Source: Lysobacteraceae bacterium (lineage in GTDB: Bacteria > Pseudomonadota > Gammaproteobacteria > Xanthomonadales > Rhodanobacteraceae). Taken from it: a stretch of 64,000 nt of DNA. This document shows positions 29,500-56,484 of the stretch, one piece after another. Each line of letters opens with the position of its first letter. Position 1 is the first letter of the stretch. The notes under the pieces are model-generated. The model worked only from the letters and a program-made list of their open reading frames with translations. It was not told the origin of the DNA and searched no databases. The position numbers were made by a program, and so were the translations under genes. The stretch covers positions 3,862 to 67,861 of the forward strand of contig JBDZUX010000006.1 in NCBI GenBank assembly GCA_040255405.1. The letters are read 5' to 3'.

Positions 29500-30051
29500 A
29501 TGGCTCCATCTGCACGCACCGCACGTGGCTTCACCCTGACGGAACTGCTGATCGCGCTGGCGATTGCCGGAATTCTCGCGATGATCGGTGCGCCGGCGAT
29601 GGGCGGCCTGATCGCCCGCACGCGGGATTCCGGCATCGAAGACGCGATTGCCGCGGGCTTGCGCGGCGCGCGCACTGCCGCGGTCATGCGCAACTCACGC
29701 GTGCTGGTGTGCCCGAGTTCGAATGGACACCGATGCGCGTCGATCGCGGATTGGCAACACGGCTGGATCATCGCGCAGGATGCGGACCACGATGGCCAGC
29801 CCGATCCGGGCAGGTCGATCCTCGACGTGCAAGCTGCCATGCCCGCCGGCACGCACGTGATCACCAGCGCCGGGCGCAGGCGCATCGATTTCCAGCCGAG
29901 CGGCAGCGCGGGCGGCAGCAACGTGACCTTCACCATCTGCCACGCGCGCGAACACGCTGGCAGGGCGGTGATCGTGGCCAACTCCGGACGCGTGCGGGTC
30001 GCGCATGCCGACGCCATGCACCTTCAGGCGTGTCTTGCCGGGATCCCGTAA
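29500..30051 (+). CDS. fimT: GspH/FimT-family type IV minor (pseudo)pilin
   Basis: The prepilin leader and N-methylation site are MAPSARTARG|FTLTELLIALAIAGILAMIGAP. GGAGGG lies upstream of ATG 29500. The C-terminal region contains AGRRRIDF (GRxR-like). Confidence 0.8.
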   Translation: MAPSARTARGFTLTELLIALAIAGILAMIGAPAMGGLIARTRDSGIEDAIAAGLRGARTAAVMRNSRVLVCPSSNGHRCASIADWQHGWIIAQDADHDGQPDPGRSILDVQAAMPAGTHVITSAGRRRIDFQPSGSAGGSNVTFTICHAREHAGRAVIVANSGRVRVAHADAMHLQACLAGIP

Positions 30052-30129: not shown

Positions 30130-31689
30130 TCACGGCTGCCCCATGTACCGGTAATACGCAATCCCGAAATCCTGGAAGGCGTGCTCGTTGCGGGTGCCCA
30201 CGCGGTCGATCACCACGCCGGACAGGGTCGTCGAGTGCGTGCCGTCCAACGTGCCGCCGTCGTGCAAGGTGGCGTATTCGGATTGGTCGAGGTCCACCGC
30301 GCCATTCAGCGCATCGCGGAACGCGATTGCGCGCGCTGCTTTGCGCCAGCCCGGCGCCACGCGCGCGGGAATCGCTTCGGCCGCGTCGCCGCTGCCGTAG
30401 CCTAGCAACAACACGTCGCGGCATTCCAATTCCAGGCCGTGCGCCGCCGCGTCGTCCAGCCCCGCGGCCAGCCATGCAGGCAGTGCCGCCGTGTAGAGGT
30501 TGCCGAATTCCATCATCGAATCGGAACCGGTCTGCAGCTTGTCCTCAACCATCTGCTGGTAGGTGTCGATTTTGCGAAACGACTTCAGCAACGCCGATGA
30601 TGCGGGATAGGCATCCGCCGGCAACCTATCGATCGTGCACCCGTCGACGCCGGTCCGCCACTCGCGCACCACGTCGTCGAGCGACACGCCAGCCGACGCG
30701 CAATGCAGATCCAGTTCGCTCGCCGCGGCGCCATCGCCATTGGCCGCGTCGTGTCCCAGCGCCGCCAGATAACCCATTGCCAACGCATTGCGCGGCATCC
30801 GGTGATACGGCCGGTGCATGAACACGGCCGCCAGCCCGCGCAGATAGCCTGCGTGCGAGCCGCCACGTCGCGCGAACATCGCATCCAGCGCGCGCAGCGT
30901 CGCATCGGTGTAGCAATCGGTCGAATACTTGCCGTTGAACACCGGCAGGTCGCTCAGGTGTCCGTGCAAGCCGGGCGTCTGTCCCGCGAAACGGAGGAAC
31001 GGCTTGCGGAAATCCAGCCCGCGGTATTCCGACGCACTGCCGCCCAGCGCGAGATCGAGTTCCAGCAGGCGTGGCGATGACTCGAGCAGCATCGCGACCG
31101 CACCGGCGCCCTGGGTAGGCTCGCCGCTGCTCCCGCGCGCGTACTCCGCGATGTCGGCGCTCACCGCGATCGCCTGGCGGTCGCGCCCGTCGCAGGCGAG
31201 ATAGCGCAGCCCGCCCTTCAGCGCGTACACGCCGCCGAGGCATGCGTGCTTGAACTCCGGCACTTCGCAGTCGCGCGCAAGCCCGGATTTGCCTTCCGAC
31301 GCCAAGGCCTGGTCGACCAGCCCGCGCACGATCACCGCGCCTGCTGCATTGTCGATACTGGATTCGGTCCCGAGCGCGAGATAACCGACGCGACGCGGGT
31401 CGATGCCGTATTGCGCGATCAACCGCAGCACCGCATTCGCGGCCAGCGTGTAGACGTTCTGGTCGGGGCCCGGCATCCGGAAGGCGTGTCCCACCACCGC
31501 GCGCGTCTTCGAAGCATCGTTGCCGGTCCAGCCGGACCATCGTTCCAGATCCACTCGGTACGGCGGCACGTACACCGCCATGCCGCTGATGCCAACGGGA
31601 GGATTCGCTGAAAACGGATTCGCAGACACGAGGCGGACTTCCTGTTGCAGGGAACGAAACGCGCGAGTATGCGGGAATTCCGCGTCCAC
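30130..31689 (-). CDS. Hydroxymethylglutaryl-CoA synthase family (thiolase-fold condensing enzyme) protein
   Basis: HMGS catalytic blocks are ALGTESSIDNA (Glu), EFKHACLGGVYAL (Cys) and VFMHRPYHRMP (His). The start is uncertain, either ATG 31689 or GTG 31629. Confidence 0.7.
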   Translation of the reverse strand: MDAEFPHTRAFRSLQQEVRLVSANPFSANPPVGISGMAVYVPPYRVDLERWSGWTGNDASKTRAVVGHAFRMPGPDQNVYTLAANAVLRLIAQYGIDPRRVGYLALGTESSIDNAAGAVIVRGLVDQALASEGKSGLARDCEVPEFKHACLGGVYALKGGLRYLACDGRDRQAIAVSADIAEYARGSSGEPTQGAGAVAMLLESSPRLLELDLALGGSASEYRGLDFRKPFLRFAGQTPGLHGHLSDLPVFNGKYSTDCYTDATLRALDAMFARRGGSHAGYLRGLAAVFMHRPYHRMPRNALAMGYLAALGHDAANGDGAAASELDLHCASAGVSLDDVVREWRTGVDGCTIDRLPADAYPASSALLKSFRKIDTYQQMVEDKLQTGSDSMMEFGNLYTAALPAWLAAGLDDAAAHGLELECRDVLLLGYGSGDAAEAIPARVAPGWRKAARAIAFRDALNGAVDLDQSEYATLHDGGTLDGTHSTTLSGVVIDRVGTRNEHAFQDFGIAYYRYMGQP

Positions 31690-39821: not shown

Positions 39822-41438
39822 TCAATGTGCCCGCAAGTCGCGCATCCTGAAACCGGTTCCATACAGCGCGAGCACGTAAGCCACGCCGCCCGCGCACACC
39901 AACGCCACCAGTTTCCAGATGCGGGTGATGATCCGTTCGTGCGTCCATTCCTGCCAGGGCCAGAACCACAGTCCGACGCCCACCACGACGACCAGCGCCG
40001 CGCAGGCCAGCCCGATCCTCAGCCAGTGCCGGGCCCAACCGGGTTGTGGGGTATAGGCGCCGCTGCGCTTCAGGTACCGCCACAGCAACCCGAATTGCAG
40101 GTAATTGGAAACCGAGCTCGCGATCGCCATCCCGAGATGCAACCCCGGCACCTGCGCGATGCCTTCCAGCCATGCCAGGTGTTTCGACGTTGCCGGGGCC
40201 CACAGCTCGAACAGCAGCGCGATCAACGCAAAATTGAACACCATGTTGACGACCAGCGCGATCACGCCCGCACGCACCGGCGTCTTGGTGTCCTGCCGGG
40301 AATAGAAGGCCGGCAGCAGCGTGCGCGTCAACGCGATTGCCGGCACGCCCGCGGCCAGGCCCATGATCGCGATCGCGGTCATGTGGCTGTCGAACGCGGT
40401 GAATTGTCCGTTCTGGAAACACGCCGCCACCGCCGGCTCGGCCAACAGCAGCAAGCCGAACATCGCCGGCAGCGCGATCAACAAGGTGGTCCGCAATCCC
40501 CAGTCCAGCGATCGCGAGAACCCCTCGCGATCGGCACTGACGTGATGGCGCGACAACGCCGGCAGGATCACCGTGCCGAGCGCGACCCCGAACACGCCCA
40601 ACGGCAATTCCAGGAATCGCGTCGCTTGCGCCAGCCAGGTCTGCGAACCCGTGATGAGCAACGACGCAACGGCCGTGTCCAGCAGCAGGTTGATCTGCGC
40701 CACCGATGAACCAAACAGCGTCGGCAGCATCAGCCGCATGATCTGGCGCACGCGCGGATGGTTCCAGCCCCAGCGCGGCAGCGTCAGCAGGTCGAGGCGC
40801 CGCACCGCCGGCAGCAGGAACAGCAACTGCAGGATGCCCGCGATCAGCACCGCCCAACCCAGCGACTCGATCGGCACTGCGAGCTGTTTCGCACCCCAGA
40901 GTGCGCCCGCGATCAGGCACAGGTTGAGGATCACCGGGGCGAGCGCCGGCAACGCGAACTTGTGGAAACTGTTGAGGATGCCGCCGCAGAGCGCGGTCAG
41001 CGACACGAACAGGAGATAGGGAAACGTCAGCCGCAGCAGCTTGATGGTGAGGTCGAACTTGTGCGGCTGGTCCAGCGAACCGGGCGCGAAACCCGTCGCC
41101 ACCTGCGGCGCGAAAATGATCCCCAGCGCCACGATCACCAGCAATACGCCCCCAAGCGTGCCGGCGACGCGCGCGGTCAGTTCCTTCAGGTCCGCATGGC
41201 TGCCGGTTTCCTTGACCTCGGTGAACACCGGCACGAACGCGGTCGAAAACGAACCCTCCGCGAACAGTCGGCGCATGAAATTGGGGACCCGGAACGCGAC
41301 CCAGAACGCGTCGGTGGCGGCGCTGACGCCGAACACATGGGTAATGGCGATGTCGCGCGCAAGCCCCAGCAGCCGCGAAATCATGGTCATGCTGCTGAAC
41401 GAGAACACCCCGCGCAGCAGACTGGGCGGGCGGGTCAT
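39822..41438 (-). CDS. murJ: Lipid II flippase MurJ (MviN)
   Basis: The N-terminus is MISRLLGLARDIAITHVFGVSAATDAFWVAFRVPNFMRRLFAEGSFSTAFVPVF. The protein is polytopic. Confidence 0.93.
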   Translation of the reverse strand: MTRPPSLLRGVFSFSSMTMISRLLGLARDIAITHVFGVSAATDAFWVAFRVPNFMRRLFAEGSFSTAFVPVFTEVKETGSHADLKELTARVAGTLGGVLLVIVALGIIFAPQVATGFAPGSLDQPHKFDLTIKLLRLTFPYLLFVSLTALCGGILNSFHKFALPALAPVILNLCLIAGALWGAKQLAVPIESLGWAVLIAGILQLLFLLPAVRRLDLLTLPRWGWNHPRVRQIMRLMLPTLFGSSVAQINLLLDTAVASLLITGSQTWLAQATRFLELPLGVFGVALGTVILPALSRHHVSADREGFSRSLDWGLRTTLLIALPAMFGLLLLAEPAVAACFQNGQFTAFDSHMTAIAIMGLAAGVPAIALTRTLLPAFYSRQDTKTPVRAGVIALVVNMVFNFALIALLFELWAPATSKHLAWLEGIAQVPGLHLGMAIASSVSNYLQFGLLWRYLKRSGAYTPQPGWARHWLRIGLACAALVVVVGVGLWFWPWQEWTHERIITRIWKLVALVCAGGVAYVLALYGTGFRMRDLRAH

Positions 41439-41440
41439 GC

Positions 41441-41529
41441 GGGGAAACCGGGGTCAGAGTGCAATTTCGGACAAGACACCGGAAAATCGCAGGGCCAGCC
41501 CGAAATTGCACTCTGACCCCTGCCTCCGG
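41441..41529. repeat. REPIN/MITE-like inverted-repeat element, copy A
   Basis: GGGGAAACCGGGGTCAGAGTGCAATTTCGG is separated by a variable core of about 30 nt from CCGAAATTGCACTCTGACCCC. It lies in the murJ/rpsT divergent region. Confidence 0.8.
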
Positions 41530-41608
41530 TCCCTGAAGGATTGACTGGAGTCCGCAATCCCGCGATACTTGCCGGCTTCGTTCCGCCGTTATTTTCCGGA
41601 GTCACCCC

Positions 41609-42032: not shown

Positions 42033-43262
<1,230 letters not shown>

Positions 43263-44062: not shown

Positions 44063-44155
44063 AGCGGAAACCGGGGTCAGAGTGCAATTTTGCCGGGAGC
44101 ATCGCATTGCTGTCCGGTTGCCGCCCAAAATTGCACTCTGACCCCGGTTTCGCGG
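44063..44155. repeat. REPIN/MITE-like element, copy C
   Basis: GCGGAAACCGGGGTCAGAGTGCAATTTTG is paired with CAAAATTGCACTCTGACCCCGGTTTCGC. It lies in the rplU/uvrA divergent region. Confidence 0.8.
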
Positions 44156-54765: not shown

Positions 54766-56484
54766 TCAGCGCCAGGCATTCGAAACGGGATAGCGCCGCT
54801 CACGGCCGAACGCGCACGTGGAAACGCGCGGTCCGGGTGCCGATTGGCGCCGCTTGAATTCGCTGGCGTACAGCATCCGCACCACGCGCTGCACGTCGTT
54901 GGCGTCGTAGCCAGCCGCGACGATCTCGGCCTGCGACTGTGCGCCTTCGATGCAGCGCACGAGGATGCCGTCCAGCACGTCGTAGGGGGGCAGCGAATCC
55001 TGGTCGGTCTGGTCGGCGCGCAATTCGGCGGAAGGTGCGCGTTCGATCACGGCGATGGGTATGGGCAACAACGAGGCGTCAGGAAAACCGGGGGCAGAAT
55101 GCACTTTCGCGGAAGAAACAGTGTGCACGCGGAGCCGGGGTTCGAAAGTGCACTCTGCCCCCGGTTTTCCCGGTTTTCCGGCACCATTGCGCCACTTTGC
55201 CAAGGCATACACCTGCGTCTTGTAGACATCCTTCAACGGCGCATAGCCGCCGCACATGTCGCCGTACAGCGTTGCGTAGCCGACCGCCATCTCGCTCTTG
55301 TTGCCGGTGGTCAGCAACAACTTGCCGGTCTGGTTCGACAATGCCATCAGCAGCACGCCGCGGCTGCGCGCCTGCAGGTTCTGTGCCGTGAGATCCGCCA
55401 ACTCGCCGCACGCGGGCGCCAATGCGGCAGCGGCAGCGTCCACGGCGCCCGCGATCGATACGTCGAGATATTCGACGCCCAGCGTGCGGGCCTGCGCATG
55501 CGCCTCGCGCAGGGAGAGGTCGGAGGTGTAGCGCGAAGGCAGCATCACGGCGGTGACCTTGTCCGCACCCAGCGCGTCCACCGCGATCGCCAGCGTCAAC
55601 GCGGAATCGATGCCGCCGGAAAGCCCGAGCAGCACGCCTTCGAAGCCATTCTTGGCGGCGTAGTCGCGCACACCACGCACCAGCGCCGCGTACAGCAGGG
55701 CCTCGGTGGACGTGTCGGCCGCGGCGGCCCAATCGCGCGCGGCCCACTTGCGTGGCCCGGAGTCGAATTCCGCCCACAGCAGCACATCGACGAACGCCGG
55801 CGCGCGCGCTGCGACGGAGCCGTCGCCGTTCACGAGCAGCGATGCGCCGTCATACACCACGTCGTCCTGCCCGCCCACCATGTTGAGGTAGGCGATCGCG
55901 CAACCGGTTTCCATGGCGCGCGCAGCCAGCAACGCCTCGCGCTGCGCCTGCTTGGCGGTATCGAACGGCGAGGCGTTGATCACAACCACCATTTCCGCAC
56001 CGGCACGCGCAGCGGCCGCGATGGGTTCGGGCTGCCACGCGTCTTCGCAGATCAGCAGCCCCACGCGCACGCCGTGCAACGTGGTGACGGTGACGGCGTG
56101 TCCCGGTTCGAACCAGCGCTTGTCGTCGAACACGCCGTAGTTGGGCAGCACGAGCTTGTGCGCGATCTGCGCGACGCGCCCGTCATGCAGCAAGGCGGCC
56201 GCGTTGTACACGACCCCCGCGCTGTGCGGAAAACCGACCAGGGCCGCGAGCCCGTCCGCCTCCGTAGCCAGGTTGTCCATCTCCGATTGGCACGCGGCGA
56301 GGAAACTCGGCCGCAGCAGCAGGTCTTCCGGCGGATAGCCGCTCAAGGCAAGTTCAGGGCACACCAGCAGGTCGGCGCCGCCCGCGCGCGCGTCGCGCAT
56401 CAATACGCGCACGCGATCGGCATTGGCCGCAATGGCACCGACCGGAAAATCGAATTGCGCCAGCGCGAAACGCAGTGTTGCCAT
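54766..56484 (-). CDS. nadE: Glutamine-dependent NAD+ synthetase, carrying an in-frame repeat-derived insertion
   Basis: The N-terminal CN-hydrolase domain has LVCPELALSGYPPEDL and LLICEDAW. The synthetase domain has LGLSGGIDSAL and TTGNKSEMAVGYATLYGDMCGG. The C-terminal block is APSAELRADQTDQDSLPPYDVLD. Confidence 0.93.
   Translation of the reverse strand: MATLRFALAQFDFPVGAIAANADRVRVLMRDARAGGADLLVCPELALSGYPPEDLLLRPSFLAACQSEMDNLATEADGLAALVGFPHSAGVVYNAAALLHDGRVAQIAHKLVLPNYGVFDDKRWFEPGHAVTVTTLHGVRVGLLICEDAWQPEPIAAAARAGAEMVVVINASPFDTAKQAQREALLAARAMETGCAIAYLNMVGGQDDVVYDGASLLVNGDGSVAARAPAFVDVLLWAEFDSGPRKWAARDWAAAADTSTEALLYAALVRGVRDYAAKNGFEGVLLGLSGGIDSALTLAIAVDALGADKVTAVMLPSRYTSDLSLREAHAQARTLGVEYLDVSIAGAVDAAAAALAPACGELADLTAQNLQARSRGVLLMALSNQTGKLLLTTGNKSEMAVGYATLYGDMCGGYAPLKDVYKTQVYALAKWRNGAGKPGKPGAECTFEPRLRVHTVSSAKVHSAPGFPDASLLPIPIAVIERAPSAELRADQTDQDSLPPYDVLDGILVRCIEGAQSQAEIVAAGYDANDVQRVVRMLYASEFKRRQSAPGPRVSTCAFGRERRYPVSNAWR
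55082..55179. repeat. REPIN/MITE-like element, copy D, located inside the nadE reading frame
   Basis: GGAAAACCGGGGGCAGAATGCACTTTCG is paired with CGAAAGTGCACTCTGCCCCCGGTTTTCCCGGTTTTCC. In the nadE frame it reads GKPGKPGAECTFEPRLRVHTVSSAKVHSAPGFP. Confidence 0.8.

Follow-up and report, generated by a model that had tools for sequence, protein, structure and literature searches.

A REPIN-type palindromic element within the reading frame of nadE in a Rhodanobacteraceae genus

How does a palindromic repeat come to lie inside an essential gene, and how is it kept there in frame? The question is raised by nadE, the gene for glutamine-dependent NAD+ synthetase, in a stretch of 64,000 nt (the window) from a Lysobacteraceae bacterium of the GTDB family Rhodanobacteraceae (assembly GCA_040255405.1, contig JBDZUX010000006.1, positions 3,862 to 67,861). 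The host genome, called G000 below, is a 3.3-Mb draft of 66% G+C in 87 contigs, and the window lies on its contig C31. An initial annotation of the window had described a palindromic element inserted in frame in nadE, likened it to REPINs and to MITEs (miniature transposable elements with inverted repeats), and asked whether the insertion forms a tolerated surface loop. We find it very probable that a REPIN-type element inserted once in a permissive linker of nadE, and that it has been inherited since then as a tolerated passenger, not as an adaptation.

An in-frame hairpin element in the NadE linker

The host gene encodes a complete enzyme, with the Pfam domains CN_hydrolase (residues 7-241) and NAD_synthase (residues 265-547) and a score of 715 bits against the NCBIfam NAD+ synthase model NF010588, for a cut-off of 479. 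A second copy that would make nadE dispensable was considered and rejected: no other NAD synthase was found in this genome, which is 89% complete and in which nadE is the sole full-length PF02540 match of a profile search. The element occupies a linker of variable length that leads from a helix ending in LAKWRN to the conserved IPxAVIER-PSAELR block of the synthetase domain (Table 1).

A search for inverted pairs recovered the element at the place first proposed, inside the 572-residue open reading frame (ORF), and the earlier translation of the minus strand was identical, letter for letter, to that of the ORF. Two 28-nt arms, 96% complementary, are separated by 33 nt, and a further 11-nt terminal repeat extends the element to position 55179. 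The slight divergence of the arms noticed at first is real (GGGGGCAGAATGCAC / GCACTCTGCCCCC on the plus strand). This copy reads GGGGGCAG...CTGCCCCC in place of the family's GGGGTCAG...CTGACCCC, such that both sides are altered, from T-A to G-C, and pairing is kept. The single mismatch left between the arms, G/A, becomes a G-U pair on the mRNA strand. The altered arm deviates at the W position from the end motif GGGGWSAS, so that the nadE copy may now be immobile.

In the mRNA, a hairpin whose stem comprises about 30 bp is predicted for a 141-nt stretch, with a folding free energy of -73 kcal/mol, for an average of -46.9 in shuffled sequences (z = -6.9). The features of an intrinsic terminator are not found: the loop is 33 nt long, and the stem is followed by four U in the window copy and by none in six other carriers of the insert. 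A scan for terminators and promoters around nadE did not call the element. With Rfam 15, a scan of the whole window at the gathering score returned tRNA only, and the element thus belongs to no described RNA family.

Table 1. Coordinates of nadE, of the parts of its inserted element and of other copies of the family. Simple ranges refer to the window; G000 C86 and the like designate contigs of the host genome.
Feature	Location	Strand	Basis or remark
nadE, glutamine-dependent NAD+ synthetase, 572 aa, host gene	54766..56484	-	intact ORF, Pfam and NCBIfam
variable NadE linker, residues 434-483, 50 aa	55036..55185	-	ortholog comparison, HMMER, pLDDT
arm 1 (3' arm in mRNA)	55082..55109		A-to-C change matching the change in arm 2; one G/A difference
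spacer (loop), 33 nt	55110..55142		homologous in 7 species; reverse-complemented in 3; unlike other spacers in the genome
arm 2 (5' arm in mRNA), read as KPGAECTF	55143..55170		GGGGGCAG where family has GGGGTCAG
tandem repeat of terminal 9-mer CCGGTTTTC, read as second 'KPG'	55171..55179		inverted pair; ends of copy 43130 similarly reiterated
intergenic family copy	41443..41520		absent from orthologous site of G066, clean boundaries
intergenic family copy, reiterated termini	43130..43262		arm consensus matches
intergenic family copy	44066..44152		arm consensus matches
in-frame family copy in mpl, inside Mur_ligase_M domain	G000 C86:9333-9406		outgroups without segment
in-frame family copy in ctaA/COX15, between its two halves	G000 C9:20099-20169		outgroups without segment
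two in-frame family copies, linkers of icmF-like MeaB-mutase fusion	G000 C23:248-321, C23:968-1041		outgroups without segments

Alignment of orthologs showed that the segment is an addition to NadE. The linker bounded by the invariant WRN and PSAELR measures 14-16 residues in six outgroup genomes from other families of the order and 14-17 in members of the genus without the repeat; it measures 41-50 residues in seven carriers. When the closest solved structures, 5KHA (Acinetobacter) and 4F4H (Burkholderia), are included with the outgroups and some genus members, linkers of 14-23 residues stand against the 50 of the window. HMMER alignments to the two structures stop at residue 435 or 442 and restart at 475. 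Repeat-free orthologs therefore hold no equivalent of the 33-residue segment, and the insertion is in frame, as annotated. As for its size, the 98-nt element alone does account for the roughly 33 added residues first estimated, but the excess over the ancestral 14-residue linker is 36.

The element is present at the same site in seven genomes, G000, G010, G007, G048, G054, G042 and G062, and the nadE insert also occurs in 14 or more other database proteins, which come from JGI, ENA and NCBI assemblies. With orientation taken into account, spacer identity among the seven carriers is 61-88%; because these spacers are homologous, the sequences are best explained by a single insertion that was later inherited. 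The insert is kept across a divergence of nadE DNA that reaches approximately 19%. In two close relatives, G024 and G066, the linker has 19-20 residues and no insert. In a comparison of linker DNA from 28 related species, G047 and G044 were seen to retain remnants of the element; it may have replaced an older palindrome made of heptamer repeats, or the reverse may have happened.

The shared spacer occurs in two orientations. G054, G042 and G062 have it as the reverse complement of the form seen in G000, G010, G007 and G048. The outer flanks are asymmetric, with GAAAAACCGGGG on one side and CCCCTCGTCATTTCC on the other, and do not differ between the orientation classes; the inversion therefore happened between the arms. 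Neither orientation contains a stop codon, the spacer being read as FEPRLRVHTVSSAKVH in one and as FVEETASTRSRDSKVH in the other. On a tree of nadE DNA from which the linker was excluded, both orientations are found within the clade (G062, (G007, G061)) and within the clade (G024, G054, G000, G066), both well supported. An approximately unbiased (AU) test on this tree rejected a single flip (p = 6×10−5), and this implies at least two inversions of the spacer, although on the NadE protein tree a single inversion was not rejected (p = 0.18).

In an AlphaFold2 model of NadE built with 75 homologues (mean predicted local distance difference test, pLDDT, of 75.7; TM-scores of 0.71-0.78 against 4F4H and 5KHA), residues 438-465, which come after a helix at 422-435, have a pLDDT below 50. 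The insert is thus predicted to be a floppy, disordered loop, which agrees with the tolerated loop proposed at the outset; solvent exposure, which that proposal also implied, does not follow from low pLDDT.

These observations fit the following course of events. A non-autonomous palindromic element, with two inverted arms of about 25 nt starting with GGGGTCAGAGT and a spacer of about 33 nt, would have entered the nadE linker once, in the ancestor of part of an uncultured Rhodanobacteraceae genus. It would have survived because its frame and length were compatible with the open reading frame, and some 30 extra, probably disordered residues would be translated. Thereafter it was inherited vertically, the spacer drifting at about the synonymous rate and the arms staying nearly constant at the DNA or RNA level, and the spacer was inverted at least twice, probably by recombination or by template switching between the arms.

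The repeat family, its transposase and other in-frame copies

The nadE copy belongs to a family. A 21-nt arm consensus matched the window seven times with at most 3 mismatches (at 41443, 43158/43222, 44066/44132 and 55083/55149) and gave no match in 100 shuffles. In the whole genome, the family amounts to about 30 paired copies plus singles, and a control with the reversed pattern found none. The outer 11 nt (GGGGTCAGAGT / ACTCTGACCCC) are constant among genome copies; the next 9 nt or so vary from copy to copy and are complementary within each (GTGCAC, GTCGAC, GTGCCT/AGGCAC, GTCATT/AATGAC). Of the 26 pairs listed, 24 measure 70-78 nt from GGGG to CCCC. Spacing is therefore held within narrow limits, and the spacers themselves are unrelated: their best local score was 10, versus 12 in shuffled spacers. 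A search for element pairs with a common spacer, as expected of recent copies, found none above shuffled controls. A typical copy has 2-5 of its six frames open in this G+C-rich genome.

A single Y1_Tnp gene is present in the genome, at C52:29989-30711, and contains its sole PF01797 match (C52:30028-30354, 55.9 bits, above the cut-off). The same repeat flanks this gene: GGGGTCAGAGTCGA lies at 29883, approximately 100 nt upstream, and its reverse complement, at 30702, overlaps the stop codon. Because the only Y1/HUH transposase gene of the genome is flanked in this way, assignment of the element to the REPIN type (TIR/TIRYT-type) is supported. Downstream of the transposase gene, at a distance of about 950 nt, lies a further pair of arms of the GTCGAC variant (G000:C52:31657-31888); the pair spans 232 nt, where 70-78 is usual.

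Close orthologs of the transposase occur almost solely in genomes that carry the repeat, among 57 genomes of the genus. Those of at least 78% identity were found in G000, G054, G060, G042, G007, G069 and G048, all of which have repeats; that of G048 (C88:5582-6306) appears broken, being split into two frames. The ortholog of G006 (C68:1381-2100) carries a TAG codon, and G006 has no exact repeat match. No ortholog was found in three repeat-rich, highly fragmented genomes. Together with the flanked gene, this co-occurrence bears out the first description of the element as REPIN- or MITE-like, and the elements are presumably mobilised by this single-copy Y1 transposase of the RAYT/TIRYT type.

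Some observations concern the history of the family as a whole. G024 and G066, the closest relatives by nadE, have no family copy and no intact cognate transposase, and at the locus orthologous to the 41443 copy (L243, compared with window positions 41400-41570) G066 has a clean empty site, the one observation that bears on movement of the element. G000 and G054, on the other hand, have orthologous copies in common with more distant species. This pattern suggests either loss of the whole repeat population by precise removal, or a conflict of gene trees. Far outside the Xanthomonadales, exact matches to the full element pattern were found in two metagenome-assembled genomes labelled Gemmatimonadaceae/Gemmatimonadales (loci L038 and L108), which could reflect horizontal transfer or mis-binning.

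The family had been described as otherwise intergenic. Within the window this is so, but over the genome about one copy in six (5 of about 30) lies in frame inside a conserved gene: in addition to nadE, these are mpl, ctaA and, with two copies, an icmF-like gene (Table 1), and Pfam domains are recognised on both sides of each copy. Two other candidates for intragenic copies, in recQ (C27:111942) and ribD (C31:134879), were rejected: the Pfam domains begin after them, and these copies are therefore more likely to lie upstream of the true start codons.

The nadE linker has also received other repeats. Other species of the genus carry, at the same place, palindromic repeats unrelated to the present family: runs of GGGAATG/GGGAATC with their complement (read as GNGEWGMGNR...IPDSRFPIP), runs of GGGACCA (GTRDKGPGTNS...PVPGPRSPVPIP) or runs of GGGACTC (GLGTRDSGLG...SPESRVPSP). 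One-sided remnants of heptamer palindromes are found as well. In the sister taxa G007 and G061, whose nadE DNA is 92% identical, the linker holds the present element in the former and a heptamer palindrome in the latter. The ancestral codons for V-I-P (GTGATTCCC) resemble a single unit of the GATTCCC heptamer runs of which the right arm of several inserted palindromes is made, and this resemblance may explain why the spot attracts palindromes. A second such hot spot is the mpl linker (GVSAR | FVIEADEYD), where 12 species (L189-L200) show unrelated palindromic inserts of at least six kinds, 28-61 residues long, among them a widespread 'EPLSLRERGRGEG...LLPEGEG' repeat; in G009, the mpl linker has only 7 residues.

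Passenger, co-opted hairpin or repeated landing

If the element is a passenger, its sequence should be free to vary, and this holds for one part of it only. Among the seven carriers, variable sites make up 7 of 45 positions in the arms (16%) and 21 of 33 in the spacer (64%); in the flanking nadE sequence, they make up 133 of 185 third positions (72%) and 71 of 370 first and second positions (19%). The p-values of the differences between arms and spacer (p = 1.6×10−5) and between arms and third positions (p = 4×10−12) overstate independence, since the carriers are related, but the size of the contrast remains clear. The only constant encoded peptides derive from the arms, KPGSECTF and KVHSDP. 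Judged by these rates, the spacer peptide appears effectively unconstrained, and the arms appear constrained at the nucleotide level. The recQ copy, located upstream of that gene, behaves likewise: in five genomes its arms are identical and its spacer has diverged. Constraint on the arms is therefore a property of the repeat family, not of NadE.

The contrast could nevertheless mean that the hairpin of nadE has been co-opted, and that selection keeps the arms because the RNA or DNA stem-loop functions, for instance by binding the transposase in the role of a host factor, by pausing translation between folding units, or by offering a site for RNase III-type cleavage that sets the level of nadE mRNA. 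Besides the low variation of the arms relative to the spacer and to neighbouring synonymous sites (64-72%), the two-sided change that kept pairing in the window copy, the G-U nature of the remaining mismatch, the strength of the predicted stem and the persistence of the insert over the divergence of nadE all point in this direction. However, family copies at loci other than nadE keep their arms equally, as the recQ copy does; the close relatives G024 and G066 do without the insert, and in other species this place is taken by unrelated repeats. In addition, six of the seven carriers have lost the U-run that follows the stem, and the terminator scan did not call the region. Co-option of the nadE hairpin is, on balance, rather improbable.

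Could the linker be a target so hot that the seven species gained the element independently, in either orientation? The carriers are dispersed over the nadE tree, at least three other palindromic families have entered the linker in other species and the mpl linker behaves alike, and the close relatives that have no family repeats, G024 and G066, are also those without the insert. But copies within one genome have unrelated spacers, and independent hits would hence have brought different spacers, so that the homologous spacer of the seven carriers contradicts separate gains; the same asymmetric outer flanks are moreover retained in both orientation classes. We consider this explanation very unlikely. 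Finally, a repeat wrongly joined into nadE during assembly or binning of a metagenome-derived genome is hardly credible, even for a draft of 87 contigs, as seven species assemblies obtained independently and the database proteins from further metagenomes carry the insert at the same codon position with the frame intact on both sides, and the flanks are continuous nadE sequence on a contig of at least 67,861 bases.

The interpretation as a singly inserted, tolerated passenger also meets difficulties of its own. Carriers are scattered among non-carriers on the nadE tree, with seven changes of state, and several losses or replacements, or recombination, are therefore needed. As all spacers in the genome are unrelated, there is no sign of recent copying. 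The transposase scores 66.7 bits (E = 1.9×10−18) with REP_Tyr_transpos, its only NCBIfam match, under the curated cut-off of 80 for REP-associated transposases, and we therefore do not claim strict RAYT membership. The structural model is a monomer without ligands, in which true active-site loops (394-421 and 485-496) also have low pLDDT; since known mobile loops score as low, low pLDDT is no proof that the insert is exposed or harmless. Above all, strong conservation of the arms in a coding region is not predicted for a purely neutral passenger. Something more has to account for it: the hairpin or the transposase site may be under selection, or other copies may convert the arms.

As to the changes within the element, quasipalindrome template-switch mutagenesis (work of Ripley and of the Lovett laboratory) is known from laboratory reporter genes. 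Template switching of this kind would explain both the paired T-A to G-C change of the arms and the inversions of the spacer; in contrast to the reporter systems, it is comparative data only that point to it here. A bolder reading can be built on the same material: the arms would be selected for a sequence-specific role of the hairpin even in an essential gene, the nadE and mpl linkers would be landing pads throughout the genus, where a resident hairpin draws successive unrelated palindromes, and flips and paired changes would be by-products of hairpin-templated replication. As a whole we hold this to be unlikely; if true, the in-frame copies would be a natural experiment separating DNA-level from protein-level selection on REPINs.

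Relation to known palindromic elements and significance

Palindromic repeats inside genes have already been published, and the nadE case adds to a known phenomenon. Di Nocera et al. 2013 (PMC3733652) described, in the passages considered here, TIR repeats that have the end motif GGGGWSAS and flank TIRYT tyrosine transposases, and intragenic REP dimers that code for 20-30 residues in several species, one of them a Xanthomonas; the genes with inserted REPs include those for tRNA synthetases in Xanthomonas oryzae. As in the TIR/TIRYT systems of those passages, the present repeats are not self-complementary, they flank the transposase gene, whose 3' end is overlapped by one of them, their terminus GGGGTCAG fits GGGGWSAS, and their dimers are scattered in the genome. 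Neither nadE nor the present genus appears in the passages of that paper on TIRs and intragenic REPs. Compared with these passages, what is added here is inheritance through seven species, repeated inversion of a spacer in frame, the contrast in rates between arms and spacer, and the reuse of a linker by several families.

The family shares with the REPIN-RAYT systems (Bertels & Rainey 2011, PMC3116915, PMC3337134; Nunvar 2010) a hairpin-forming inverted doublet, a single-copy transposase gene flanked by the repeat, long-term vertical inheritance, and joint loss of repeats and transposase. It also shares what was stated as a curiosity of REPINs (PMC3337134), namely that their spacing is constrained and yet no two spacers are alike. 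It differs from them in several respects. Classical REPs have an imperfect palindromic core, many with a GTAG head, whereas the present arm GGGGTCAGAGTGCACTTTCG has no GTAG, its sole palindrome is the 6-nt GTGCAC, and the variants GTCACT, GTGCCT and GTCATT lack even that. Copies number about 30 and not hundreds, one in six is intragenic where REPINs are described as predominantly extragenic, and the transposase matches the NCBIfam RAYT model below its cut-off.

A resemblance to the Rickettsia palindromic elements (RPEs) had been pointed out in the initial annotation. RPEs are in-frame palindromes in unrelated housekeeping genes of Rickettsia (Ogata et al. 2000, 2002; summaries in PMC10969869 and PMC3733652). 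According to these summaries, they too contribute a peptide where the fold permits it and do not disrupt the host genes; RPE-1 type elements are longer (about 100-150 bp), have a conserved peptide and no known transposase. In contrast, the present spacer peptide appears unconstrained and is read in either orientation, and a cognate transposase gene is present. The likeness is thus one of effect and does not amount to membership: the element is set apart from RPE families 1-10 by these properties, no comparison with RPE sequences being made, and a relationship in sequence is not expected.

For annotation of the Xanthomonadales, it follows that stretches such as KPGSECTF...KVHSDPGF, GLGTRDSGLG and GNGEWGMGNR...IPDSRFPIP are to be read as repeat-derived insertions, not as conserved domains. 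That the arms evolve 4-5 times more slowly than synonymous sites bears on what maintains REPIN-type repeats, be it selection, their transposase or conversion. In-frame palindromes in essential genes indicate that selfish DNA can lengthen proteins without killing them, and the nadE case is unusually informative because one insertion can be traced through seven species. Its spacer peptide, unconstrained as far as the rates tell and readable both ways, argues that the insert is structurally irrelevant to NadE.

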